Shown one piece after another: positions 19,773 to 63,808 of a stretch of DNA of 64,000 nt; within the stretch, counting starts at the first letter, position 1; each line of letters begins with the position of its first letter. The notes below the pieces were generated by a model, which saw only the letters and a program-made list of their open reading frames with translations, made no database searches and was not told the DNA's origin. Source of the stretch: a virus (lineage: Duplodnaviria; Heunggongvirae; Uroviricota; Caudoviricetes). A program made the position numbers and the translations under genes. The stretch is from positions 43,455-107,454 of the IMG/VR virus record IMGVR_UViG_3300031760_000016; one strand, given 5' to 3'.

Positions 19773-21278
19773 TCACTCGCATCGCGACCAGCCGCAGGAC
19801 TTGCAGACGTCGCAGCCGCCCTCATGGACGATCTCGTTCCCGCACTTTGGACACAGGTGCTTTTCGCCCTTTGCGGGCTTGACCGTATCTTCGTGAACAT
19901 GCGGCTTGTGAGGATCGCAAACCTCAGGGGTTTCAGGCGATCCGATCTCAGACTGCATTTCCGTCCACATATCCATGAGCGCGTTACCAATGGCTACGGG
20001 GCAGCATGAACCCTTGGACGTGTCGTGCTTGGTGGCGGAGCGCACAGCGTAAGAGGGGCAGACGCCGCAGCTGTGAAGCTGGTCTACGATGGCGAATATA
20101 TCGCACCCGGATCTGGCGGCGAGTGAAATCATCCGGCTGAGGCCGACCATGTAATTGTTGCAGCCGCCGGAGGATCCCTTGCTGAGATAGGTTTCCAGAA
20201 GGTCGCCGTTTTCCGGGTCAAAGAATGCAGTACAATGCAGAGATCCGCACCCCGTGGTGAGCTTGCGCTTCTTGCCGACCACATTATCGGACGATTCGAT
20301 GACCGCGCCGCGAGGGAGTACGTCGATCTCATTGAGTTTTTCGCTCTTGGGAGTGGGTTCTGGAGCTGGATTTTCCTCTTTCTTCGTCTCGGTCGTCAGT
20401 ATGCCGGCCCGGCGGCAACCGTTTCTGAAGACGGTGATGCCCTTCAGGCCATTTTCCCAGGCGTCGAAATAGATCTTTTCAACGTCTTCAACCGTCGCTT
20501 CGAACGGAAGGTTGACGGTAGAAGAAATTGAGGCGTCGATGTAGCGCTGCCATGCCGCCTGCATGAGCACGCGGTCGTGCGGAGCGATGTCCGCCGAGGT
20601 CACGAAGAAATCCGGAAGTTCAGAGTCGTCCTTGAGGTTGTGGGCTTCCATGTAGGTTTTTACAATGGGAGTGTAAACCTTGTACTCCTTCGCCTCTTCG
20701 TACAGGCTTTCAGTTTTACGGGTGTAGAAGTTGGCAAAGATGGGCTCCAGGCCACCCGACACGCCGATCATCGTTGACAGGGTGCCGGTGGGCGCGATCG
20801 TCAAGAGCTGGCTGTTTCTCAGGCCATACTCATGTATGTATTTTTTGTTGTCTTCGGAGATATTCAGGGAGTAGAACGGTGACTTCGCAAGTTTTTGCTC
20901 GTCGTACATGGGGAACGGGTCGTCCTGCGCTGCGAGATTTGCCGAAGCATATACAGCGGAATTGAGGATGGTGTCGGCAACCGAACGGCAAATATCAATG
21001 GATTCAGGGCTGCCATACCTCACGCCCATTTTGATGAGCATGTCGGCAACGCCCATGACGCCGAGGCCGATCTGTCTCCAGTCCCTCACGCTGTCGCGCT
21101 GCTCCTGCAGCGGGTGGAGGGGAAGACCCTCATCGAGTACGTCGTTCAGGGCTACAGTCGCGATGAATGCGGCCTCGCCGAGTTCTTCAAAGTCAAGGTT
21201 GCCGTTTGAGTCAACAAATTCGGCGAGATTCAAACTACCGAGCAGGCAGCTCCCGCCGGGCGGCAACGGTTCCTCTGC
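19773..21278 (-). CDS. nrdJ: Class II (B12-dependent, NrdJ-like) ribonucleotide reductase, exon 2
   Basis: Begins AEEPLPPGGSCLLGSLNL, the RNR active-site loop following NPC. Contains TIAPTGTLS and a C-terminal 4-Cys ribbon (CPKCG...CDVCKSCG). No small subunit nearby. The ORF-track start at 21281 is an artificial TTG. Confidence 0.7.
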   Translation of the reverse strand, partial: AEEPLPPGGSCLLGSLNLAEFVDSNGNLDFEELGEAAFIATVALNDVLDEGLPLHPLQEQRDSVRDWRQIGLGVMGVADMLIKMGVRYGSPESIDICRSVADTILNSAVYASANLAAQDDPFPMYDEQKLAKSPFYSLNISEDNKKYIHEYGLRNSQLLTIAPTGTLSTMIGVSGGLEPIFANFYTRKTESLYEEAKEYKVYTPIVKTYMEAHNLKDDSELPDFFVTSADIAPHDRVLMQAAWQRYIDASISSTVNLPFEATVEDVEKIYFDAWENGLKGITVFRNGCRRAGILTTETKKEENPAPEPTPKSEKLNEIDVLPRGAVIESSDNVVGKKRKLTTGCGSLHCTAFFDPENGDLLETYLSKGSSGGCNNYMVGLSRMISLAARSGCDIFAIVDQLHSCGVCPSYAVRSATKHDTSKGSCCPVAIGNALMDMWTEMQSEIGSPETPEVCDPHKPHVHEDTVKPAKGEKHLCPKCGNEIVHEGGCDVCKSCGWSRCE

Positions 21279-22164
21279 CAAAGAGGTATTTAGACTATAT
21301 CTTCACCCTACGCACACATCTGTAGGGGGTTCGCACTCTTCAAATCGACCTGTATAGACCATAATTCATCGGACATCCATGCCGGTTGGCATTCATATCC
21401 GAGGTAAGCCTTATACAGCATTGAAGGGACGAGATAGGGGATGATCAAACTGAAGAAAATGTTGTAGCTCTCCTTCTTGATTCTGAGCCTTGTGAATTTC
21501 CCGCGCTTGACCAATGAGGTTTTGATGTCATAGTTTTCCAGAAGAGCATCCTGAATGGTCTTGATGTCGTCGTATGTATATCGGTCTGTGCAGAAATCAA
21601 CGCGCCTGTCGGTGATTGTACCTTTACTCCGTCCGACCAGGCAGACGTAACCGTCTGACATGTACCAGTTTGCCAGACCGTACGGCGTGAGCCAGTCGAG
21701 CGCTTCCCGGGTGATTATTCTGTGGCGGTAATCATCATAGAAGTTGTTGTATATTTTGGTAAAATACGGATGGGCGAGTATTATGTATTCCCAGTTCTCC
21801 TGATGATTGCACCAGCCTGAATAATGCTCCGGCGTGTAAATGACTTTGGATTTAAAACCCGAGCAGCTTTCGATTTCCTCTGCGATATTATTGATGAAGT
21901 CCTGATGAATGCTCTTGATTCTGAATGCCCGCTTATGGACACCCTTGTCTATCATCCCGTCACCGAGTATTAGTCCTGTTAAGAACCCTCTTAACTCTGA
22001 ACTGTTCATATGTTATAGCCCCCTATAACTGTTTTTTCGATTTGATTTTAGTCGTTGAACCTTCCTCATATTTCTGAGGCTTGGCTGCTGATTGCCTTTC
22101 GGTTTCCAGCAATTCGCGAACGATTGTTTTCATGAGATTGCTCTCAAGCCCTGCGCAAAAGTTC
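21279..22164 (-). mobile_element. Group I intron in nrdJ carrying a LAGLIDADG homing endonuclease ORF
   Basis: Exon 1 stops reading 5 codons after NPC; exon 2 resumes in frame after a G. Minus strand shows Q-like AAUCAGCAGCCAAGCC, R-like AAGGUUCAACGACUAA and, near the 3' end, S-like GAAGAUAUAGUC. The HEG ORF sits between them. Confidence 0.7.
21308..22009 (-). CDS. LAGLIDADG-family homing endonuclease (intron-encoded)
   Basis: 233 aa. GFLTGLILGDGMIDKG is a LAGLIDADG motif. Own start and stop inside the intron. Confidence 0.6.
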   Translation of the reverse strand: MNSSELRGFLTGLILGDGMIDKGVHKRAFRIKSIHQDFINNIAEEIESCSGFKSKVIYTPEHYSGWCNHQENWEYIILAHPYFTKIYNNFYDDYRHRIITREALDWLTPYGLANWYMSDGYVCLVGRSKGTITDRRVDFCTDRYTYDDIKTIQDALLENYDIKTSLVKRGKFTRLRIKKESYNIFFSLIIPYLVPSMLYKAYLGYECQPAWMSDELWSIQVDLKSANPLQMCA

Positions 22165-22971
22165 ACAGGGATTTGTGCCAGCGTATTCAAAGTTCTCATA
22201 TTCACTCAGCAGGTTCCAGCTGGAGATCATGTCCCAGAACAGCATTCCGGGTTCTCCCATGTCCCAGTTGTTCTCCGCGATGTGATGGAACAGCTGCCTT
22301 GCGTTTACGGTTTTGCGAATGGTTTCGCCGGTTTCGGAGCGCGTGAACCTGAGTTCAAACGGCTCATCGTTTTCCACGGCCTGCATGAATTCATCGGACA
22401 TGCGGACGGAAATGTTGGCTTTGGTGACGCGATCGAGATCCTTCTTGATGTCCACGAATTCCTCGATGTCCGGGTGATCACAGCTCAGAGAGAGCATCAG
22501 CGCACCGCGCCGGCCATTCTGGGAAATCAGCCCGGTAACCATGGAATACAGATCCATGAACGACACCGCGCCGGAACTCGCCTTTGCCGCGTTTCTCACG
22601 ACCGCGCCCCTGGGTGCCAGCTTTGACAGGTCAGTGCCGCATCCTCCGCCGTACGAATACGTGCGAGCCAGCTTCTTGGCGCAATCAAAGATGGATTCGA
22701 GGTTGTCCTCAGGAGGCGTGACGACATAGCAGTTACTATAGCTGATTTTCTTTCCTTCTTTTGTGAGTCCGCGGTTGGCGAGGATGCGCCCTCCAAACAG
22801 GAATTTCTTTTCCAGAATCAGGCGTTTGACCTGAGGGTCATTACCGCTCACTCTGGTCACCCATTCCAGAAAGCTTTCGCCATCATTGCGGTATTTCTGC
22901 TCCCAGATGTTTATGCCGATCTGATTATCAGCGCCGAGCCAATCCTGTACCGTCATTTCTCTGGCATCCAA
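22165..22971 (-). CDS. nrdJ: Class II ribonucleotide reductase, exon 1
   Basis: Blocks IWEQKY...LEWVTRVS, SNCYVV and GGGCGTDLSKLAPRGA; ends ...YAGTNPC at the intron insertion point. Confidence 0.7.
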
Positions 22972-24794: not shown

Positions 24795-25027
24795 CTCTTG
24801 CCTCCTTCAGTAAACATGGCGTAGATCACAACGCCGATGAGGATCAGAATGAGAAGTGCAAGCGGAGCCCAGATAGGGGCCGTGACCCACCACCAGCTCC
24901 AGTCGATCACGCCGCACAGCTTCAGGATGATGAAAGCTGTGCCCAGAAGATTGGAAGTACTTATTGCGGCTGGCATGTTGTAGCTTCTGTCTTTCGTTTG
25001 AACCACTCCCTTATCATTCAAGCTCAT
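24791..25027 (-). CDS. Small membrane protein
   Basis: 78 aa with two hydrophobic helices. Confidence 0.35.
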   Translation of the reverse strand: MSLNDKGVVQTKDRSYNMPAAISTSNLLGTAFIILKLCGVIDWSWWWVTAPIWAPLALLILILIGVVIYAMFTEGGKR

Positions 25028-28000
25028 CCATCAGGTCTTCATCGACCCGGATCAGCTTGTATTTTTCCAATGTGAAATATCCCTTTGAATCTCTGGAATA
25101 TCTCAGACACCTGATTATGTCGCCCTTCTTGATCGGCTCCAGATTGAATGCCCTGTTGAAGACGGTAAACCGGCTCTCGATCCCGCTGCCGATGGACTGT
25201 GTGAGCACGTTGTAGCCGAACTGAGCGCCGTCGCGCTTCCGCTTCACCGGGTAGACGTCCTTGATGTAGAGCATCGATCGCTCGTCGTCATTCCCTGAGA
25301 CATATCCGCTGTAGCCCATCGCTTCATTAAAATGCCTGACCTTGGTGACCACGCCGTAGTCGCTGAGGTTCAGAGATAAAACCTTGCGCTCGCAATCCCG
25401 GATGATTTGGGGTGTATCTGTGAGCGTGTAGTTCGCGGCGTCCTTGCCATCCTTCGTCTTTCCGGTGCTGTATTTCTGGACGATCGGCTCTATGTACGAC
25501 CCGGCGATCCGCTCCTTCTTGATCTGCTTGGCGCCGCCCTGTTTGAACAGTTCCCAGAAAAAGACGATGTTCTCCAGTTCCCGCTGATTTCCAAACCCTG
25601 AGAAAAAGTCAATGTGAATAAGAATTTTCAGCTGGCGGGCGTCGAGGCCAACGACGTTGGTCATGTCCGTCAGCAGGTCAGAAAAGTACTCGTACTGGTG
25701 GTCACGCGACAGCTGATACAGCTTTCTGGCAACCTTATCGCCGATGAACTTGATGGATGAAAGTCCTTTGGCTATGGTCTTGCTGTCTGGATCACAGGAG
25801 TATTCGCTTTGCGAGATGGAGTACTTTGGAGGGGTCACCGATATGCCGTACTGTTTCGCCAGTATCGTGCCGTTCTTGATATCGTCATCGTTTGCGGCGT
25901 TATTCAGAAAGGCTGTGATGAATTGAACCGGATAGTAAAACCTGTAATAGGCGCAGAGATATCCGAGCAGGCAATACGCTATGCTGTGGTTGTAGCCAAA
26001 CATATAAGAACTTGCGTCCTCGATGATCTGCAGGAACTCTCCGCATTCCTTTTCAGCGACTTCACGCGGCTTGTCGGACTTGGAGCAGTACCCGTCCAGA
26101 ATCTTTGGTAAAGCTTCTTCAAGGATCTCTGGTTTTTTACGGGCTATGCCGCGGCGAACGGTGTCAGCGTAAGAACCGCTCAGACCGCAGACCTTTTGAA
26201 GAAACGCTATGATGTCCTCTTGGTACGTCAGATATCCAAGGTTGTCAGACAGCAATTCGTCGATCAATTCAGACGGATTGTGATGTTTTTTGTGCGCCAA
26301 TAGCGCGTCCCTGTACGACGCTCCAGACGGACGAATGCATGCTGTAACAAGCGACATATCAAAGATGCTATTGGGTTGAAATTGTTTAAGACTTTTGAAG
26401 GCATATTCACCCTCGAACTGGAACACGGCTCCAGGATATTTGATCATATCCGACCAGACCTTTTCGTCGTCCCAGTTGATTTCATAGGTTCTTGGATACG
26501 GAACCCCGATCAGCTTGCACGTGTCGCGGATGACCTGAACCGTTTTCAAAACCAGAAAGTCATACTTTGCCGCGCCAACCTCGTGGAGCTCCTCCATGTC
26601 AATGACCAGGCAGCGCTCGCTGTCCTTGTCGAAAACGCCGTATTCCTCGTCGAGATCGATGGGGGAGATCACCATCCCGGCGGGGTGGACGGACTGAGAA
26701 ACCTTCGTTCCCAGCAGGCCGTCAAAGTAGTAAAACAGTTCGGGGTACTTGCCCTTGGCAGCTTCCGGATTTGAGTTGTACTCGGTCTTGATCTTGTCGA
26801 TCTTCTTCAACGCCCAAGGATTCTCGCTCTGCTCCGCATCCGGATGCGCGGCCTCCCACATAGACCTCAGAGCGCCGCCGGCGTCGTCGATGGTTCCCAG
26901 TTCGGCGATCGTGCCGAACGACGCCACACGCGCCGTGTGGTTCGTGCCGAACCTTTGCATGATGTATTGGAAAATTGCTGGACGGTCTGATTCAACCACG
27001 TCGATATCTATATCTCCAATTTCCGTCCTGTCCTCGTTCGCAAAGCGTGAGAACACGGTGTGCCATTGCTCGGGGTTCAGGTCGATGATGTCGGTGACGT
27101 AGGCCACTCTCGACCCGCCGACCGATCCTCTCGCGGTTCCGATCGCCATGCCGTGTTCCTTGCACCACGAGACGAGCTCGCTCATACTGAGCATAAACCC
27201 GCACATTTTCAGCTTGCTGAAAACGCGGAGTTCTTCAGAAATCGCTTCTCTGAAAGCATCCTCCTGATCTCTCGGTATGATGCCGTTTTCCAGCTTCTCG
27301 TCCAGCTTTTGCCAGGTCAGTTCAATGTACTTGCGTTCATCCGCTTCGGCAGAGCCGTAAAGGATGGGATATTTGATGCTGCGGTCGAGTTCAAAATCCT
27401 CAACCGTGTCCGCCATCCTGTTCGTGTTTTCGATCGCCTCAAGAAAAACCTCTTCCGGCAGCGCGGCCTGTCTGCGGAACATCTCCACGAATTCATTGTA
27501 GTTTTTCCAGGTCAGATCAAGGCTGTCCTCGTCGCCGTAATTCTTTTTCTTCCGGATCATCAGAATGCTCCTGCACTCGGCCTTGTACTTGGACGAGTTA
27601 TGTGTGTCTGTCCCGGCGATCAACGGCTTCCCGATCTTATGCGACAGCGCGAAAAGCCGGCGGTTGAAATTCACCTGATCTTCGCAATTGTGCGCCTGAA
27701 TCTCCAGGTAGTCATAGTGCTGAGCCAGTTCCATGTACCTTGGGTGGTCGTCCGGCAGCCTGTTCAGCGGCGAAGCCAGACACGCGCTGGTCTTGATGAT
27801 GTTGTCAGATATGTTCAGGAACTCATCAAATGAGATCCTGTTCGTGTAGTAGAAGTGTTCTGGATTGCTTGACAGCCCGATGAGCCGGTTCAATTCGTGA
27901 ACGCCATCGAGGTTTTTGGCAATCAGAACCGTGTGATAGTTATCCCTGACCTTCGGTTCAAGCTGCTCGGTGAGGTAGATTTCCACACCGTGCATGAATT

Positions 28001-28304
28001 TGATTCCATGCGCCTCGCAGTACAGCTTCTTGCTGACCCAGCCGAGCGGCTTGCCGTGTTCGGTGGAAGCGATGGCTTTCATGCCCTGCTCGGCGGCGAG
28101 GTCGACGTAATCCTCAAACTTTGAGCAGCTGTCCAGGAGCGAATAGTCAGAGTGAAGATGGTATACGGTGTAATTTCCAGATGGCATTCCCGACCTCCTT
28201 AACTGAGCCGTTCGCGCGATTCGTACAACCTTTCCCAGATCTCTCTGCCCTGATCCACAGGGCTGTCCTTTGGCAACAAGAGGCTGTCGCGGTTCTTGAC
28301 CCAT
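25014..28304 (-). CDS. dnaE: DNA polymerase III alpha subunit (DnaE family) with N-terminal PHP domain
   Basis: 1096 aa. N-terminus YTVYHLHSDYSLLDSCSKFEDYVDLAAEQGMKAIASTEHG is a PHP domain. Length and central polymerase blocks fit the DnaE family. Confidence 0.8.
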   Translation of the reverse strand: MGQEPRQPLVAKGQPCGSGQRDLGKVVRIARTAQLRRSGMPSGNYTVYHLHSDYSLLDSCSKFEDYVDLAAEQGMKAIASTEHGKPLGWVSKKLYCEAHGIKFMHGVEIYLTEQLEPKVRDNYHTVLIAKNLDGVHELNRLIGLSSNPEHFYYTNRISFDEFLNISDNIIKTSACLASPLNRLPDDHPRYMELAQHYDYLEIQAHNCEDQVNFNRRLFALSHKIGKPLIAGTDTHNSSKYKAECRSILMIRKKKNYGDEDSLDLTWKNYNEFVEMFRRQAALPEEVFLEAIENTNRMADTVEDFELDRSIKYPILYGSAEADERKYIELTWQKLDEKLENGIIPRDQEDAFREAISEELRVFSKLKMCGFMLSMSELVSWCKEHGMAIGTARGSVGGSRVAYVTDIIDLNPEQWHTVFSRFANEDRTEIGDIDIDVVESDRPAIFQYIMQRFGTNHTARVASFGTIAELGTIDDAGGALRSMWEAAHPDAEQSENPWALKKIDKIKTEYNSNPEAAKGKYPELFYYFDGLLGTKVSQSVHPAGMVISPIDLDEEYGVFDKDSERCLVIDMEELHEVGAAKYDFLVLKTVQVIRDTCKLIGVPYPRTYEINWDDEKVWSDMIKYPGAVFQFEGEYAFKSLKQFQPNSIFDMSLVTACIRPSGASYRDALLAHKKHHNPSELIDELLSDNLGYLTYQEDIIAFLQKVCGLSGSYADTVRRGIARKKPEILEEALPKILDGYCSKSDKPREVAEKECGEFLQIIEDASSYMFGYNHSIAYCLLGYLCAYYRFYYPVQFITAFLNNAANDDDIKNGTILAKQYGISVTPPKYSISQSEYSCDPDSKTIAKGLSSIKFIGDKVARKLYQLSRDHQYEYFSDLLTDMTNVVGLDARQLKILIHIDFFSGFGNQRELENIVFFWELFKQGGAKQIKKERIAGSYIEPIVQKYSTGKTKDGKDAANYTLTDTPQIIRDCERKVLSLNLSDYGVVTKVRHFNEAMGYSGYVSGNDDERSMLYIKDVYPVKRKRDGAQFGYNVLTQSIGSGIESRFTVFNRAFNLEPIKKGDIIRCLRYSRDSKGYFTLEKYKLIRVDEDLMDELE

Positions 28305-29197
28305 TCGACCCGTGCGTAAGACTGGAGTTTTTTGATGTTGTCATCCTTGAGAATGTTGATATCGGAATCCAGCGCGAAGACGATTCTCGTGCGATAGTAG
28401 CTGCATAGCTGAATGAGAAACCTGAACTGGAGAACGGACAGATGTGATGTGAGCAGAGCGCCTGTGTTTTGAAAACCCCATTCCTCCGCCTTCATGCAGC
28501 TCTTTGCGCCCTCAAACAGAATGAATTCCCCGGCCTTCAGGATCGCCTCGCGGTTGTCAGAATAGCCGTAGATGGTATCGAGAGTACCGATCTGCTGTTT
28601 ATAGGTGTACTTTCGCAGCTTCTTTGCCTTGTAATCCGGGTCGCAGGTTCTGCCGCAGACCGAAATGATATTGCCGTAGTAATCCTTGATGGGGTAGACG
28701 ATCCTGTCGTCGAAGGCATCGTATCGGACACCGTACTTCTTCAGCGTTTCCCAGCTGATGCCCTCATTGACCCAGAGCTGCAGTTTATCCTTTCGGAATT
28801 CATACTGCATCATCACGTCATCCGGAAGCGGTTTCGCAATCATTTCCGGAATTTTCTTGTGGCTGCCGCGATATTTCTTGGCAATGCGCGTGGCTTCAAG
28901 CCGCGTGACGACATGCCCGCTTTCGTCCTCGACGATGTGGGCGTAGCGCTTGAGAATGCGTACGGCCTTTCCAACGTCCACATTGTCGTGGAGCATCACA
29001 AACTCCACGATGTTCCCGCCCTTGGAGGTCGAGAAACAATACCAGTACTTTTTGTCCGGGTCTACGGAAAATGACGGCGTTTCATCCACCGAGAAACAGC
29101 TCCTGCCCCAGTACTCCCGGCCTCGCTGTTCGAGGTCAATGTACTGTGATATGTATTCGACGATGTCGATTGCGTCGATGATTTCCGATACGTCCAT
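28199..29197 (-). CDS. dnaG: DNA primase (DnaG-like, CHC2 zinc finger + TOPRIM)
   Basis: 332 aa. CFSVDETPSFSVDPDKKYWYCFSTSKGGNIVEF is the CHC2 zinc finger; downstream TOPRIM-like acidic blocks. Confidence 0.75.
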   Translation of the reverse strand: MDVSEIIDAIDIVEYISQYIDLEQRGREYWGRSCFSVDETPSFSVDPDKKYWYCFSTSKGGNIVEFVMLHDNVDVGKAVRILKRYAHIVEDESGHVVTRLEATRIAKKYRGSHKKIPEMIAKPLPDDVMMQYEFRKDKLQLWVNEGISWETLKKYGVRYDAFDDRIVYPIKDYYGNIISVCGRTCDPDYKAKKLRKYTYKQQIGTLDTIYGYSDNREAILKAGEFILFEGAKSCMKAEEWGFQNTGALLTSHLSVLQFRFLIQLCSYYRTRIVFALDSDINILKDDNIKKLQSYARVEWVKNRDSLLLPKDSPVDQGREIWERLYESRERLS

Positions 29198-29206
29198 ATG
29201 CCCTCC

Positions 29207-29527
29207 TTAGTAGGGCTCAAAGGGGCTGTGTTGCGTTGCCTCCTCGTACAGAATCTTGTCGCCTTGGAAGTTCACGTCTATGTACTCGCCCTCGTTCATT
29301 TGCGGTCCGTTGCGGTTGAATCGAACGAACAGCTTTTTGTTTCCGCAGACAGTCCCGTCTCGCTGAATCTCTTCTGGGGACTTGTCCTGAATCATGATGA
29401 TTGTGCTCGCATTTCTGGCAATCTTGGCGCTGTCCGCGAGGCGGCCTGTTGAGGTGGCCTGCGCCGCGCCGATGCCGGCGATGTTGAGTTCACCACACAA
29501 TTTGTTCTTGACCGTCAGTGTGTTCAT
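29207..29527 (-). CDS. dnaB: Replicative helicase DnaB, exon 2 (C-terminal segment)
   Basis: 106 aa. LCGELNIAGIGAAQ ~ LAKELNVPVIALSQ; GRLADSAKIARNAS ~ SDLRESGSIEQDAD; VRFNRNGP ~ AKQRNGP in E. coli DnaB. The 5' boundary is approximate. Confidence 0.6.
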   Translation of the reverse strand: MNTLTVKNKLCGELNIAGIGAAQATSTGRLADSAKIARNASTIIMIQDKSPEEIQRDGTVCGNKKLFVRFNRNGPQMNEGEYIDVNFQGDKILYEEATQHSPFEPY

Positions 29528-29791
29528 CTGCTTTCACAGATGCCTGGACTATATCATCGCTGCTTTCAGCGCCGACCGCTTAGTCTCTGAACCTTCCCCT
29601 GTTCGGGGCTTGGCTGCTGATTGCCCATTGAATCGCGCTTAGGATTTGACCGTACGCTATCCCGTGAATTCTTTCCGCTTTCGCCGCCTTCGCGCTCACA
29701 ACTTTCGCTGTCACGCTTTGGCTTCACGGGCTTTAGGGTTTTCCAGCAATTCGATCGGTTTTTCACGGCATTGCTACCGTGGGACTGGCCA
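29528..29791 (-). mobile_element. HEG-less group I intron splitting dnaB
   Basis: About 264 nt between the two DnaB exon ORFs. Minus strand carries Q-like GGGCAAUCAGCAGCCAAGCC, R-like AAGGUUCAGAGACUAA and S-like GAUGAUAUAGUCC. It shares 19-nt and 16-nt blocks with the nrdJ intron. Exact splice junctions are not determined. Confidence 0.6.
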
Positions 29792-30832
29792 TCAATCCAC
29801 GATTGAACCTAGGGAGGAGTACACGGCGTAGGCGTCCATATCGGACCCCGTGCCCTTGAAGTAATCGATGATCAGGACGTCAATGCCCTGCGTGTGAAAG
29901 ACGCGCTTGACGTTTGTGTACATCGTGCTTTCATCGAAGATCGGCATGTACAGATGCGTAAAGCTCTGCTGTTTCAGCCATGCGATCGCCTCGCTGATTT
30001 TCGCGGCTTCCGCGTCGTCATATCTGCCGGATCGCAGACGTTGAAACTCGATTCCCGTCAGATGGGAAATCATACGACATGTGAAAAGCTTGCTGTTCAG
30101 TTCGCTGTCGATATAAAAAACCTTGCGGCCGGCGCGGAGAAGATCCACCGCGCAATTGAGCAGCATCATTGACTTGCCTTGCTTCTGTTCAGCACCGAAA
30201 ATGATGAGCTCGCCGCGCTCGATCATCACGTAGTTGTTCAGCGTCGGAAATTTGAACGGGAAAACCGCTGCCATGTCGGGATTCTGCCGGGCTTCGATTT
30301 CCGTCCAGTACTTCTCGATCACGTCTTTGTACTGCGGAATCTCGTTCGTTGTGGAAAACTCCATGATGACGTTGTCGAGCAGCGACGTGATCTGCTGTTC
30401 AATGTTGCTGCATTCGGAGTTAAAGCAGATGTTCTCGCACTCCACGAGCCTTTGGTAAGTGTGCCTCCTGAACGCCGCATCGATCACGGCGTTCGCGACC
30501 ATCATATAATCCTCCGGCTCGCTTCTGGCGATCAGCGACGCGTTGTCGAAGAGTTCCTGAAGCGACTGGTTGGTGATGATCGAGTTGACGTTCTCGCTCA
30601 CGTGCTCGGTGCCGCGTTTCATGTTGAGAAAGTTGATGATGTTGTAGGCGTCGATCTGCTCGATGCCCTTCTTGGCGAGTTCGCAGACGGCGTAGTAGAT
30701 GTAGGCGTTCTGCGGATTGGTAAAGTAGTTCGGTTTGAGTTGTTCTGAATGGAATGTCAGTTCCGGCGTCATGACCACCGAGGCGATTACGCCCGCCTCG
30801 GCTTCGACATTCTTGATGTCACCTACTGTCAA
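29792..30832 (-). CDS. dnaB: Replicative helicase DnaB, exon 1 (N-terminal domain + Walker A/B)
   Basis: 346 aa. GELIIFGAEQKQGKSMML (Walker A) and VLIIDYFKG (H2). The ORF terminates where DnaB should continue; the rest is in ORF 29207..29527. Confidence 0.7.
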   Translation of the reverse strand: MTVGDIKNVEAEAGVIASVVMTPELTFHSEQLKPNYFTNPQNAYIYYAVCELAKKGIEQIDAYNIINFLNMKRGTEHVSENVNSIITNQSLQELFDNASLIARSEPEDYMMVANAVIDAAFRRHTYQRLVECENICFNSECSNIEQQITSLLDNVIMEFSTTNEIPQYKDVIEKYWTEIEARQNPDMAAVFPFKFPTLNNYVMIERGELIIFGAEQKQGKSMMLLNCAVDLLRAGRKVFYIDSELNSKLFTCRMISHLTGIEFQRLRSGRYDDAEAAKISEAIAWLKQQSFTHLYMPIFDESTMYTNVKRVFHTQGIDVLIIDYFKGTGSDMDAYAVYSSLGSIVD

Positions 30833-37228: not shown

Positions 37229-37301
37229 AGCTGCCAACAGGAATCGAACCTGCAACACCCGGTTTACAGGACCGGTGCTCTGCCTGTTGAGCTATGGCAG
37301 C
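37229..37301 (-). tRNA. tRNA, anticodon loop CCUGUAA (probably Thr-UGU; position 33 is C, which is atypical)
   Basis: Manual fold: acceptor GCUGCCA/UGGCAGC, D arm GCUC/GAGC, anticodon stem CCGGU/ACCGG, T arm GCAGG-UUCGAUU-CCUGU. No encoded CCA. Confidence 0.55.
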
Positions 37302-37428
37302 ATAATCACTGTCTCCAACCTTTCCGACACCGCCATGGTTCAGCGCCTTACTCGTGAAGAGACAGTGATGACGGTTGTCGTTCTCTGTGGGGCGTCAGCC
37401 CACATCATCCAGCCGCAACGACTGGCGC

Positions 37429-37503
37429 TGGTGGAGAATATCGGATTCGAACCGACAGCCTTTAGCTTGCAAAGCTACTGCGCTACCGCTGCGCCAATTC
37501 CCC
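37429..37503 (-). tRNA. tRNA-Ala (UGC)
   Basis: Acceptor GGGGAAU/AUUCUCC with G3:U70, anticodon loop UUUGCAA, T loop UUCGAAU, encoded CCA. Confidence 0.7.
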
Positions 37504-37529
37504 AGAGGCTCCCGGTTTGGGAGCCATGT

Positions 37530-38648
37530 TTAAACTGTGAACCTGATCGGTCCGGTTTCCGGACACTTCTTGAGAACTACGCGGACAACGGGGTTTGAAT
37601 TCTCGGCCTCAGCTGCAGCGGCTCGTTTTTCCTCAGGGAGCTCATAGAAGTCATCTTCGTCCCATTTATCCATGTCGATGCCGTCCGTGACGACATACTC
37701 GCCGTCTACAATTGTTGCAAGAGCCGGCGTGAATGAAAAACCGAACTGATGTTTGCGTTCAAAGTTTCTCACGCTTACCCATTTGACGCTATTCATGTCA
37801 GTCATGTAGATCTTTTCGCGCCAGGCTTCATAGACAGAACCGTCCTTGCGAATGGCCATGATGTCGAAATAGAGGCAATCCGCCCTGGAAATATTCAGGT
37901 CGTTCAGGGTTTCCTTGAGCGTGTAGCCCTGATTGAGTTCAAAGGCGATGGCTCGGAGGTAGTCGTACGGCATGTCGACCGCGCCGGAAAGCGCAACCAG
38001 CTGGTCGATTTCTTCGGAATATTTGGGGTCGACCGTGTCTGTCAGGTACTCGCGAACCTCATCCTGACTGGGTGCTGTCATGGAGAAATGGTAGTGAAAG
38101 CGGCCCGGGCGGTTGAGCATGTAGGGACTCAGGTCGCTAAGGTTGTTGCAGGTGACGATGAAGAGCTTATGACCGCCCTCGATGCCGTCAAAGAGCGTCA
38201 ACATTTCGTCCTGCGGATTGTATTCCTTGGTTTTGGCAAAGGTCTTTTCGAACTCATCGAAGATGACCACGCAGTTCTGATCGATTGACGACAAAAAGTC
38301 AGAGATGCCCGGGATTGCCGTGTTCACGACGATGACCGGAAGCCCCTCCTGAATGGCGGCCTGAGCGAGCAGGCGGACGAACAGGCTCTTGCCAATGCCC
38401 TTCTGGCCGGACAGGAGCACGCCGAAGTTCCGCTTTGCGATGTGATAGGAACGCAAAACCTTGGCGACCTTCTCGTTGGACTTGCCGTAGATCTTTTCCT
38501 CTGTAACCGCCAGATCGTCGCGGTGGGTAAGGAAAAACCCCGACATATCGCTGAACTGGACGCCATATGAGGCGACCGGAAGTGCGTGATAGGTCTTTAC
38601 GGCGTCACCGTAGACCTGGAAACGGTTGCCGGAATTGACGATGTTCAT
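37530..38648 (-). CDS. AAA-family ATPase
   Basis: Walker A GQKGIGKS, Walker B VVIFDEFE, and NRPGRFHYHF (AAA second region of homology). Start moved to the internal ATG at 38648 (RBS AAGGAG 9 nt upstream) because the ORF-track start overlaps tRNA-Lys. Confidence 0.6.
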   Translation of the reverse strand: MNIVNSGNRFQVYGDAVKTYHALPVASYGVQFSDMSGFFLTHRDDLAVTEEKIYGKSNEKVAKVLRSYHIAKRNFGVLLSGQKGIGKSLFVRLLAQAAIQEGLPVIVVNTAIPGISDFLSSIDQNCVVIFDEFEKTFAKTKEYNPQDEMLTLFDGIEGGHKLFIVTCNNLSDLSPYMLNRPGRFHYHFSMTAPSQDEVREYLTDTVDPKYSEEIDQLVALSGAVDMPYDYLRAIAFELNQGYTLKETLNDLNISRADCLYFDIMAIRKDGSVYEAWREKIYMTDMNSVKWVSVRNFERKHQFGFSFTPALATIVDGEYVVTDGIDMDKWDEDDFYELPEEKRAAAAEAENSNPVVRVVLKKCPETGPIRFTV

Positions 38649-38671
38649 AGGCAAAAACTCCTTTATTTGAT

Positions 38672-38746
38672 TGGTGCGCCAGGTGGGAATCGAACCCACT
38701 GTGCCGGGATTAAAAGTCCCGTGCCTTACCGGTTGGCTACTGGCGC
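38672..38746 (-). tRNA. tRNA-Lys (UUU)
   Basis: Acceptor GCGCCAG/CUGGCGC, anticodon stem CGGGA/UCCCG with loop CUUUUAA, T arm GUGGG-UUCGAUU-CCCAC, encoded CCA. Confidence 0.7.
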
Positions 38747-38780
38747 GAAAGTGGAGGGCTTTTAAGCCCTCCGGGTAAAG

Positions 38781-38865
38781 CGGTCGTGGTAGGATTCGAA
38801 CCTACGGACGGTTTCCCGCCGGCAGTTTTCAAGACTGCTGTCATAAACCGCTCGGCCACACGACC
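38781..38865 (-). tRNA. tRNA-Ser (UGA), class II with long variable arm
   Basis: Acceptor GGUCGUG/CACGACC, D region GCCGAGCGGUU, anticodon stem GCAGU/ACUGC with loop CUUGAAA, long variable arm, T arm GUAGG-UUCGAAU-CCUAC. Confidence 0.65.
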
Positions 38866-43062: not shown

Positions 43063-43625
43063 TACAAGTACCCCTTAGTCAATAATATGCCTATGATGTA
43101 ACTATTCTATTACGCTTCTGGCTGTTTGTCAACCGCCTTGCTTTTGTAGTGCTCCTTGGTTATGTCAGCCATGGCGTGGTATGAAGCTTCTACGCCTTCC
43201 TTCCAGCCCCTATCATAATCCCCGAAGTACTTTGAAGCGGCGTTCCAGCCCTCCGTCCAGCCCTGCGACCACGGGCTGCCTTCGCGGTATTGCGTGAAAC
43301 ATATGACGATGCCTGCCGAGATAGCTCCGCCCGCGAAGCAGATGAAATTCAGCATTGCCCCTGACATGACCACCCGTCCTTTACCGGTTCAAAGGTGTAG
43401 ATCGAGTTCAGAGTGTGAACTACGACGGAATCAGCGGACATGTCGAATTCCGTCACGGTCGAGGTGCTCATCCAGCCATCGTTGGGCGTGCCGTCCGCGT
43501 TCTCATAATACTGGACGACCAGCCGTCGTTTAGTATGCACACCGAGTGGAAACCAACAGACGCGGCCGATCCTCATGGGATAGCGGCCGTCATCCCTGTC
43601 GTAGCCATCGAGATCCGTGATGGAT

Positions 43626-47809: not shown

Positions 47810-47885
47810 TGGTTGCGGGGGAAGGATTCGAACCTTCGACCTTCGGGATATGAACCCGATAAGCTGACCGCTGCTCTACCCCGCA
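47810..47885 (-). tRNA. tRNA-Met (CAU)
   Basis: Acceptor UGCGGGG/CCCCGCA, D arm GAGC/GCUU, anticodon stem UCGGG/CCCGA with loop UUCAUAU, T arm GAAGG-UUCGAAU-CCUUC, encoded CCA. Confidence 0.65.
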
Positions 47886-48950: not shown

Positions 48951-49475
48951 CGATAGTTTTGTTGTCTCCTTGCATAAATATAGAATCTGACAGCACCCCT
49001 GAAACAGCGGATGTCTCCGGCGTTTCAGCTATGCTCTAAACGCAGAATTTCGATTTTACCTTGACTTTACATTGAAAAACCTCCTTCGCTGAGTCGAAAA
49101 GCTGGCCTGTCGCGGCACCTGCACAGCGGAACATTCTTGAGTGATGAATGCGGAGCTGTGTACATCAGGGAGGTTAAAAGGAACCGTAGGTTCCTTTGAA
49201 AACCCTGACTATGCGTCACTCCGGTGAAGCACGCAGAGCTGCGTCTCAGAGGATATGTACTGATCCGCAAATGTTCGTGCCGCGACCTGCCGTGTCTGTC
49301 ATCTGCGTTTACCAGGGCTTTGAACCTGCTGCATTGTCCCGGGAATGCAGGCCGCATTACAGATTGCGGATGGGGAAGGGGAAAACCATCCGCAAAATGC
49401 CAGCTGGTCTGGAAACCTGATCACACGCCAGATGGAACGCTGTGAAGGCTTGGCGCATGTACCAGGGTGGAAAAG

Positions 49476-58060: not shown

Positions 58061-58893
58061 TTCGTTTTTGGATTTGGAAACAGATTGGAAACCCGGATTC
58101 TCAGACCGTCGGTGCTCTTACTCTTTTCATTGGAATTCCCTTCCTTTCTGGCGATTGACTCGCGCCCTTCAATTCGTACCGCATTTCTCAGCCGCATTTC
58201 TGCGTTGCCCGCTCTGAACCACGTGGAGGTGAATGCTTTTCTACTTCTCAGAGCATTTGGGCAGCGTTTCCCACGCGCTGCCCTGAAAGGAGGAGACCAT
58301 GAAGAATTTCATTTTAATTTCAAAATCCGTTTGCCGCTTAAAGCGTTGCCCGCCCTGAACCGCGTGGAGGTTGGATTACTCAGGGCATTTAGGCGGCGTC
58401 CCCGCAAACGCCGCCCAGGAACGAGGGGGAAAGGAGGAACCCCCTGTCCCTTAGTTGTAAGTGTCGAAGATGGAAGGTACCATGATCTCGGTCCCATCCG
58501 AAATGGGAATCATGGTCGGACGGTAGATCGTGATTCCGTGCTCATGCAGGATGTCTTCGATCTGATCCTCAATGGCTTCCAGAGTTTTAGTGTCTATGCC
58601 GATGTCTTCCAGTGAAATGTCATCTGGCTCGACACCGATCAACCTGCAGATGAATTCGTGGGTGTACTGGTCGATGTCGTCCTGCCGGCGGATGACCTCT
58701 TCGTAGTCATCCGAATTCTCGGCCATATTGAATTCCTCTTCATCATCCTCGATCTCGATGGTGAGAGAATCCGCGTCGATCACCGGCTCAGAAACCGGTG
58801 GGGGAGTGTTGCCAGTGTAGGCAACGATCGTTTTTTCCTTCAAAAGACGGCACCTCCGCTATGTAATCACAACCGGATTGAAAACCGGCGCTG

Positions 58894-61404: not shown

Positions 61405-62200
61405 CCAAATCCAAATCAGATTCGATTCCAGACCTTCAGATGCCCATGGCGAGCATCGTGAAAGCCCTTCTGCCGCGGTGCCAGACTTCGACGTCCAAAC
61501 CGCTTTTGTACCAGCGCATCGCTACGCTGCGAGACTTCGTGGTTTCCTGAGTCTCGCAGTTCACGTAGAAACTGCCTTTCAGGATCAAGTCGAAAAACCT
61601 CCATTCATTTTGGATTTCAAACCCTTGACTCTGCGTTTACACGGGCTTGTCACCGTCAGAGGCCGCATTAAGGGAGGCGCAGTCAATGTCAAGTAGTCGG
61701 CCAAATGCTTTGTACAGACGCTGCGCCCAGCCGTCTGGACAGTTCTTTGACCCGCGTGGATTATGCACCAACACGCTGGTGCTCGCGGAGAGTTTGAGTA
61801 TCACCACCTTAAAAACCCAAATTGGATTCAATTCCAGATCCTCAGGTGTGCCCGCTTTTTCTGGGACACCCAGCCCAAGAGCCTGAGCCGCTCTCGCTCT
61901 TTGCTCCACCGGAACTTTGGCCTACCCGATGGCATAGGCGAAAAACCCAAATCAGATTCGATTCCAGACCCTCAGCAGAACGACCATACACCGAGATCGG
62001 TATTGCGACTGAGCTGCACAGATCCGTCAGTTGCAGACAGGACATCGTGGATCCCAGCGTAATCGGGATTGCTGTCGATCTTGGTGGCCAGTTCGGCCTT
62101 TTCACACAGGGTCAGTTCGTGGGTGACCCAGATGATTCCATCAGTGAACATTTTCCACCTCGCTTGATTCAGATTCAATTCCAGACCCTCACGGTCTGGA
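61405..62200 (-). repeat. Four dispersed copies of a ~35-nt motif (minus strand CTGAGGGTCTGGAATCGAATCTGATTTGGGTTTTT) in a ~900-nt region without credible genes
   Basis: Cores at 61417-61434, 61821-61838, 61953-61970 and 62170-62187. The listed ORFs across them are translations of the repeat (ELNPIWVF / ESNLIWVF). Confidence 0.7.
61622..61672. repeat. Element X (ccttgactctgcgtt...ggcttgtcacc...gccgcattaagg), paralog of 63731..63792
   Basis: Three conserved blocks shared with the second copy. Confidence 0.6.
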
Positions 62201-63730: not shown

Positions 63731-63792
63731 CCTTGACTCTGCGTTAGGGGCTTGTCACCCGCCAGCGTTGTTCACACTGGGCCGCATTAAGG
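63731..63792. repeat. Element Y, second copy of the X element, immediately preceding the terminal tandem array
   Basis: Same three blocks in the same order. Confidence 0.6.
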
Positions 63793-63808
63793 TGGATTTT
63801 TCCTCTGG

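Follow-up and report, generated by a model that had tools for sequence, protein, structure and literature searches.

Why should a replicative helicase gene be read as two separate open reading frames (ORFs)? The question is raised by a 64,000-nucleotide (nt) stretch of a Caudoviricetes virus genome (IMG/VR record IMGVR_UViG_3300031760_000016, positions 43,455 to 107,454), hereafter the window, in whose ORF listing dnaB appears as two co-linear minus-strand ORFs, 30832..29792 (346 amino acids, aa) and 29527..29207 (106 aa). Our analysis makes it very likely that dnaB is a single gene (30832..29207) interrupted by an ORF-less group I intron of 279 nt (29794..29516), the endonuclease-deleted descendant of an intron lineage found at this dnaB site. 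Every part of dnaB and of the two introns described below lies on the minus strand.

Exon 1 (29795..30832), delimited by Pfam and by alignment to intronless homologs, has 346 codons from a TTG start to a final GUGGAU and codes for DnaB's N-terminal domain plus the RecA-like domain as far as Walker B (DVLIIDYFKG), its first half. Exon 2 (29207..29515), set by the gap-free join to homologs, has 102 codons and a stop; it starts with ACG GUC AAG, the beginning of T-V-K-N, and carries motifs H3 and H4 and the ...FNRNGP region. In Pfam searches, the 346-aa ORF matched the DnaB N-domain and only positions 8–139 of the 255 positions of the DnaB_C profile (51.2 bits), and the 106-aa ORF by itself had no match. 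Once the exons are joined, the DnaB_C match continues uninterrupted across the junction: the spliced protein of 448 aa gives a single match, residues 197–419 to profile positions 8–240 (60.5 bits). It passes both Pfam cut-offs (PF00772, 33.6 bits for a cut-off of 23; PF03796, 60.5 bits for a cut-off of 27) and is a DnaB-family replicative helicase with an N-terminal DnaB domain and a complete C-terminal RecA-like domain.

Uninterrupted homologs of this product are numerous. They are 447–448 aa long, cover 100% of the query at up to 82% identity, and align without gaps straight through the junction; Thr at the first exon-2 position is also found among them, and dnaB is uninterrupted in all of the 80 best IMG/VR loci. 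In the alignment to intronless homologs, both exons show clear purifying selection and neither contains a frameshift or a stop. An earlier note on this DNA had read the split dnaB as one gene and the two-ORF annotation as an artefact, and both points are borne out by homologs that cross the gap, by the gap-free join and by the restored DnaB_C match. A PDB search with the spliced protein found the DnaB structures 2vye and 2r6a, but the alignment ends at residue 327, before the junction, so that sequence comparison did not place the point of insertion on a structure.

The element between the two ORFs was recognized by the Rfam Intron_gpI covariance model (RF00028, gathering score 50) in a gathering-threshold scan of the whole window. 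The match, at 29525–29804, scores 82.2 bits (E 2.3e-19), covers model positions 1–253 of 253 and sits exactly between the two DnaB ORFs. As the score is far above chance and the Q-, R- and S-like core strings quoted in the earlier note are present in the sequence, the observation is real. Its proposal of a compact, endonuclease-less group I intron in the spacer also holds, although the length it gave, 264 nt, was wrong and the boundaries had to be corrected. The intron begins with the UGA that ends the first ORF and runs to omega-G 29516, so that 12 nt (ATGAACACACTG) at the start of the called 106-aa ORF belong to it as well. Spurious calls apart, the coding strand of 29516–29794 has no ORF and no homing endonuclease gene; promoter- or terminator-like sites were likewise not found inside the intron. 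Nor does the insert resemble an intein, as its first codon in the exon frame is a stop (TGA) and its mere 279 nt hold no in-frame ORF of intein length, and no Hint/intein family was found in the Pfam scan, which covered exon 1 and the called second ORF.

The 3' boundaries given by Intron_gpI can err by about 10 nt in both directions, so that protein and P10 evidence was needed to place the splice sites. The Rfam alignment puts the 5' splice site immediately after U29795, a base that wobble-pairs (U-G) with the guide-sequence nucleotide G29785. The region 29779..29800 contains P1 together with the internal guide sequence; there, the Rfam alignment and our P1/P10 script pair GGAU (29798–29795) with GUCC (29785–29782). 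For comparison, a junction table was built from the window and eight fetched contigs (L082–L089), giving nine alleles. P1 has 4–6 bp in 8/8 alleles, and exon 1 ends in GTGGAT in all eight that possess an exon 1. The base before the Met or Thr codon that opens exon 2 is G in 9/9 alleles, with unrelated tails upstream of it. In the window, the guide-loop sequence UGGCC (29791–29787) pairs with GGUCA of exon 2 (29513–29509) to form a P10 of 5 bp; the run is of 5 bp with the omega-G at 29516 and of at most 2 bp with it at 29525 or 29528. Six of the eight alleles have a P10 of 5–7 bp, with covariation in L085 (7 bp) and in L086 (6 bp); its register is shifted by 1 nt in most alleles. The homolog alignment, the invariant G and the P10 at 29516 together place the intron at 29794..29516 and the start of exon 2 at 29515, yielding a gap-free DnaB. 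The omega-G lies 9 nt downstream of the Rfam end, and in the relatives the distance from the end of the Rfam core to exon 2 is 20 to ~750 nt. A further candidate omega-G at 29528 (join D|MNTLTVKN) was rejected, since it adds four residues and has no P10. The ligated junction is predicted to read ...TCGTGGAT|ACGGTCAAG..., with the 24-mer TCAATCGTGGATACGGTCAAGAAC spanning it.

The exon sequence next to the intron differs between occupied and empty sites. All eight intron-bearing alleles end exon 1 in GTGGAT, with the Val codon GTG before GAT, compared with 19 of the 80 intronless alleles (L002–L081), a signature at a synonymous site that is consistent with either a constraint from P1 pairing or co-conversion. 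The T at position −1 is present in 75/80 of the intronless targets. A search with the exon-2 ORF matched 311 short proteins in all, and among the 120 clusters listed, ~80 start at or just upstream of the junction codon, without exon-1 residues.

The RNA fold was derived from an alignment of eight dnaB introns with RNAalifold, the P7 pseudoknot being added by hand. RNAalifold gives P3, P4, P5 with its extension, P6, P8 and P9, with compensatory changes in 28 of 53 pairs. When P7 is included, 93.4% of the cells are paired, compared with 32–39% in structures slid by 1–3 columns, and double compensatory changes occur in 30/55 pairs; none of 500 shuffles reached any observed value. The window RNA alone has a minimum free energy (MFE) z-score of −3.8. 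A P1–P9 fold, which the earlier note had asked for, could therefore be built and is supported by covariation.

P2 (29764..29781), found in the MFE fold and the alignment, is a hairpin with a GNRA loop (CACGGUA-GCAA-UGCCGUG) that occurs only in the subgroup formed by the window, L083 and L084. P3 (29758–29752 with 29578–29572), supported by RNAalifold and the pair counts, encloses P4, P5, the P5 extension and P6/P6a (29572..29758 as a whole). P4 (29748–29743 with 29620–29615) is invariant, and compensatory changes are seen in P3, P5 (29738–29736 with 29626–29624) and P6/P6a (29614–29591); the P5 extension (29735–29627) is branched and ~109 nt long. In the P7 pseudoknot (29546..29587), GAGACUA (29587–29581, with A29586 bulged) pairs with UAGUCC (29551–29546); P7 is 100% paired in the eight sequences, with two covarying pairs (G-C to A-U, U-A to C-G), and encloses P8 (29571–29558). 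By analogy with the Tetrahymena intron, G29585-C29547 is the predicted guanosine-binding pair. The P9 hairpin (29542–29525, CAUCUGU-GAAA-GCAGAUG) covaries in six of its seven pairs, and its 3' strand contains the ATG of the called 106-aa ORF (29527–29525). According to the junction table and the relatives, a tail of 9 nt (AACACACUG) then leads to the omega-G at 29516. A pairing of the exon GGAU with the 3' strand of P7, also proposed by RNAalifold, was discarded as an artefact because the program cannot predict pseudoknots.

By standard group I chemistry, the pre-mRNA would fold into the P1–P9 ribozyme, and the 5' splice site would be marked by the U29795-G29785 wobble once the guide GUCC pairs with the GGAU at the end of exon 1. 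P7 would bind an exogenous guanosine, which would attack after U29795; P10 (exon 2 GGUCA with guide-loop UGGCC) and the omega-G would position the 3' splice site; and ligation of the exons (...GUGGAU|ACGGUC...) would produce a DnaB of 448 aa with the sequence ...SLGSIVD-TVKNKL....

Relatives of this intron occupy the same position in many other uncultured phages. A group I intron above the gathering score (65–85 bits) was found at the same dnaB position in seven of the eight fetched relatives, and over its full length the window intron is 84% identical to that of L084 and 78% to that of L083, both from other uncultured phages. In L084, a 241-aa ORF lies inside the loop of a 10-bp P9.1 stem. 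This ORF and its homolog in L082 belong to HNH endonuclease families in PHROGs (phrog_374, E 9e-72 and 5e-60); Pfam gave no match for the ORFs of the relatives' introns. L087 retains a remnant ORF of 93 aa; for L086, the gene table lists a 207-aa ORF, and the fetched sequence has stop codons within it. L083 has a P9.1 stub and no ORF, and the window intron lacks P9.1 altogether. An insert between P7 and P3', at what we take to be the position of P7.1/P7.2 in T4-type IA2 introns, is present in L085–L089 and missing in the window subgroup, which has the large P5 extension.

From these sequences we infer that the window intron is a deletion derivative of a lineage that first carried an HNH homing endonuclease in the P9.1 loop, and that the relatives form a decay series from L084 through L087 and L086 to L083 and the window, the path expected once an intron is fixed. 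With its endonuclease deleted, the window intron is probably immobile now and inherited vertically, or spreads only by recombination or through an endonuclease acting in trans. The dnaB locus thus offers a clean natural series of homing-endonuclease decay within one intron lineage. A broader proposal is that the site VD|M/T-VKN is an undescribed hot-spot of homing, occupied in many members of a large clade of uncultured gut Firmicutes phages of ~100 kb, that the ~80 clusters (at 90% identity) of interrupted alleles capture endonuclease gain, decay and loss, and that the 279-nt intron is kept as a control point for helicase expression (responding, for example, to GTP level or infection timing); we consider this speculative and, taken as a whole, unlikely. 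An exact-match scan of IMG/VR for the window's junction of exon 1 and guide sequence gave no matches. A looser junction pattern found 120 IMG/VR loci, none encoding this DnaB family, and was set aside as of no use for prevalence.

The arrangement in L082 (1–2821, a contig from Logan SRR33574409) is different. Its HNH ORF lies directly upstream of exon 2, but exon 1 and the group I core are both missing; a minus-strand gene of 1239 aa is found there in their stead, and its genes for primase and Pol III alpha also seem to be broken into pieces (146 aa; 405 and 143 aa). Rearrangement, further introns or a chimeric assembly may account for this.

The window contains a second group I intron, in its gene for class II ribonucleotide reductase (RNR), as the earlier note had noticed. 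Intron_gpI matched 21269–22174 with 51.3 bits, and an ORF within it (21308–22009) matched LAGLIDADG_2 (Pfam, 1.8e-29), confirming that this intron carries a homing endonuclease. Rfam, Pfam, the NrdJ alignment and P1/P10 pairing place the intron at 21279..22164 (886 nt), within the codons for the active-site motif of class II RNR, with the 5' splice site after U22165 and the omega-G at 21279; P1 has 6 bp, and P10 has 7 bp at this omega-G. The exons join as TNPC|AEEPL and align without gaps to Thermotoga maritima NrdJ (1xje). In this case the Rfam 3' end (21269) overshoots by 10 nt into exon 2. The spliced active-site motif reads C-A-E, compared with C-G-E in T. maritima NrdJ.

How, then, are the two introns of the window related? 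Shared identical blocks had led the earlier note to see them as paralogous introns and to suggest intron spread within the genome; in such a model the dnaB intron would be a recent paralog of the RNR intron, transposed within the genome and later stripped of its endonuclease gene. The two group I introns do share a strand and lie ~7 kb apart, and the 19-nt block exists, although the 16-nt block does not: the exact blocks common to both are of 19, 14, 10 and 9 nt. However, the longest two are P4/P6 core strings that are conserved also in unrelated group I introns, and the similarity between the introns is confined to one core segment of 49 nt at 82% identity. Over this same segment, the window dnaB intron is 87–93% identical to even the divergent dnaB introns of other phages, besides its far closer full-length relatives. 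The endonuclease genes differ in family and place (HNH in P9.1 for the dnaB lineage, LAGLIDADG upstream of P8 for the RNR intron), as do the guide sequences and the peripheral architectures: the dnaB intron has the large P5 extension, whereas in the RNR intron P5 is minimal and an ORF lies inside. Hence, close paralogy and spread within the genome are not supported and appear very improbable to us, and the sequences point instead to two independent invasions.

The remaining alternatives concern where, and whether, the dnaB intron is spliced. With the 3' splice site at the Rfam end, the same intron would have 270 nt and its omega-G at 29525, the junction would be GTGGAT|AACACACTG (join sequence TCAATCGTGGATAACACACTGACG), and the product would be a 451-aa DnaB with an extra Asn-Thr-Leu. 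The Rfam alignment does terminate at G29525, right after the P9 hairpin, and this join is in frame and still gives one DnaB_C match, although its 58.1 bits are slightly below those of the 448-aa product. What makes this site improbable is that the insertion is missing from all 13 aligned full-length homologs, that it lacks the P10 found for 29516, that in the relatives the Rfam core also stops short of the true exon 2, which a G precedes in every allele, and that Rfam misplaced the 3' end of the RNR intron as well. More radically, the intron could be a dead, non-splicing relic, with dnaB either a pseudogene or a truly split helicase of two polypeptides whose second part is translated from the ATG at 29527. 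Such a reading would fit the lost endonuclease, the in-frame ATG ahead of exon 2 and the fact that splicing is predicted from sequence. The catalytic-core helices, however, are all intact and show compensatory changes across alleles, which argues for selection on the ribozyme fold, and both exons are under purifying selection. Moreover, the ATG is buried in the P9 stem and served by no promoter-like site, the two polypeptides would part midway through the RecA-like domain, after Walker B and before H3, and no replicative helicase other than dnaB was seen in the replication module. We therefore regard a relic as extremely unlikely.

Several points nevertheless weigh against a spliced 279-nt intron as we describe it. 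P1 is short in the window subgroup (4 contiguous bp, with 2 more on its intron side), and P10 is out of register by a single nt (exon position +2 pairs with guide position −1). The Rfam end, G29525, is itself an in-frame candidate 3' splice site. The sequences in the covariation analysis are related to each other, three of the eight being close relatives, and the interior of the P5 extension is, for the window subgroup, taken solely from the MFE fold. That the intron is spliced is, finally, a prediction from the fold and the alignments. We still favor the single dnaB gene with the intron at 29794..29516. It has a practical consequence: gene callers break an essential helicase into 346-aa and 106-aa 'hypothetical' ORFs, and recognition of the intron restores a normal DnaB.

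The neighbors of dnaB are genes for a PD-(D/E)XK nuclease, DnaG primase and the Pol III alpha subunit, the primase gene (28199–29197) slightly overlapping the Pol III alpha gene (25014–28304). A gene with a sigma-70 region 2 lies between primase and Pol III alpha in L083 (3820–4380) and L084 (3837–4412) and is not at that position in the window. Elsewhere in the window, five tRNA genes were found at 37229–38865 and 47813–47885 (minus strand), and a 389-aa ORF (37530–38699) lies between the tRNAs at 37432–37503 and 38675–38746, overlapping the start of the latter. Three minus-strand matches to the type-P1 twister ribozyme fall below its gathering score of 67.2 (49295–49363, 61623–61674 and 63731–63793, with 59.1, 50 and 35.5 bits; E 9e-11 to 5e-4), which suggests a divergent twister family repeated in the phage genome. 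Two adjacent matches to the HDV-like ribozyme family from Faecalibacterium prausnitzii (58179–58254 and 58323–58386, minus strand) score 43.3 and 39 bits, compared with a gathering score of 44, and hint at a host of Clostridia/Faecalibacterium type and at further small ribozymes.

Self-splicing group I introns are classical in phage genes for DNA metabolism: they interrupt td, nrdB and nrdD/sunY in T4, the DNA polymerase gene in SPO1, and genes for helicase, the RNR large subunit, polymerase and endolysin in Twort and other Staphylococcus myophages. The general picture of phage group I introns is said to have been drawn by Edgell et al. in 2011. Like these introns, the dnaB ribozyme lies in an essential gene for DNA metabolism, at a highly conserved position, and has a U-G pair at the 5' splice site, an omega-G and a predicted in-frame ligation; its association with a homing endonuclease is optional, and the genome holds more than one intron. 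Unlike theirs, its host belongs to a DnaB family for which 50,697 deposited phage genomes hold nothing more than 27% identical, and the place of insertion (VD|M/T-VKN, after Walker B and before H3) is absent from the literature searched. Helicase-gene introns in Staphylococcus myophages are mentioned in a passage of PMC5526547, which cites Lavigne & Vandersteegen 2013, and dense intron loads in gut phages are part of the general picture in PMC7886860. Our literature search returned no paper describing a dnaB group I intron, the co-occurrences of DnaB and 'group I intron' that were examined being DnaB inteins or unrelated mentions, and nothing on introns of Enterocloster phages.

Among deposited phages, the best DNA matches were in Herelleviridae and Enterocloster phages (Brochothrix A9, Bacillus vB_BceH_LY2 and Enterocloster CB457P1) and comprise only the intron core, with 69–76% identity over ~110–170 nt. 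These introns are likewise unannotated as such in their records, and they lie in portal or hypothetical genes, not in dnaB; the endonuclease of the CB457P1 intron is an I-TevI-like 'intron-associated endonuclease 1', unlike that of the dnaB lineage. The usual selfish element of dnaB is the intein, which, like the window intron, interrupts the RecA-like domain of the replicative helicase at a conserved site. In contrast to DnaB inteins, this element would be removed at the RNA level, as it opens with a stop codon, measures 279 nt and matches an RNA covariance model. The dnaB intron is thus much what textbooks describe for group I introns in phage genes of DNA metabolism, here in an uncultured phage clade.

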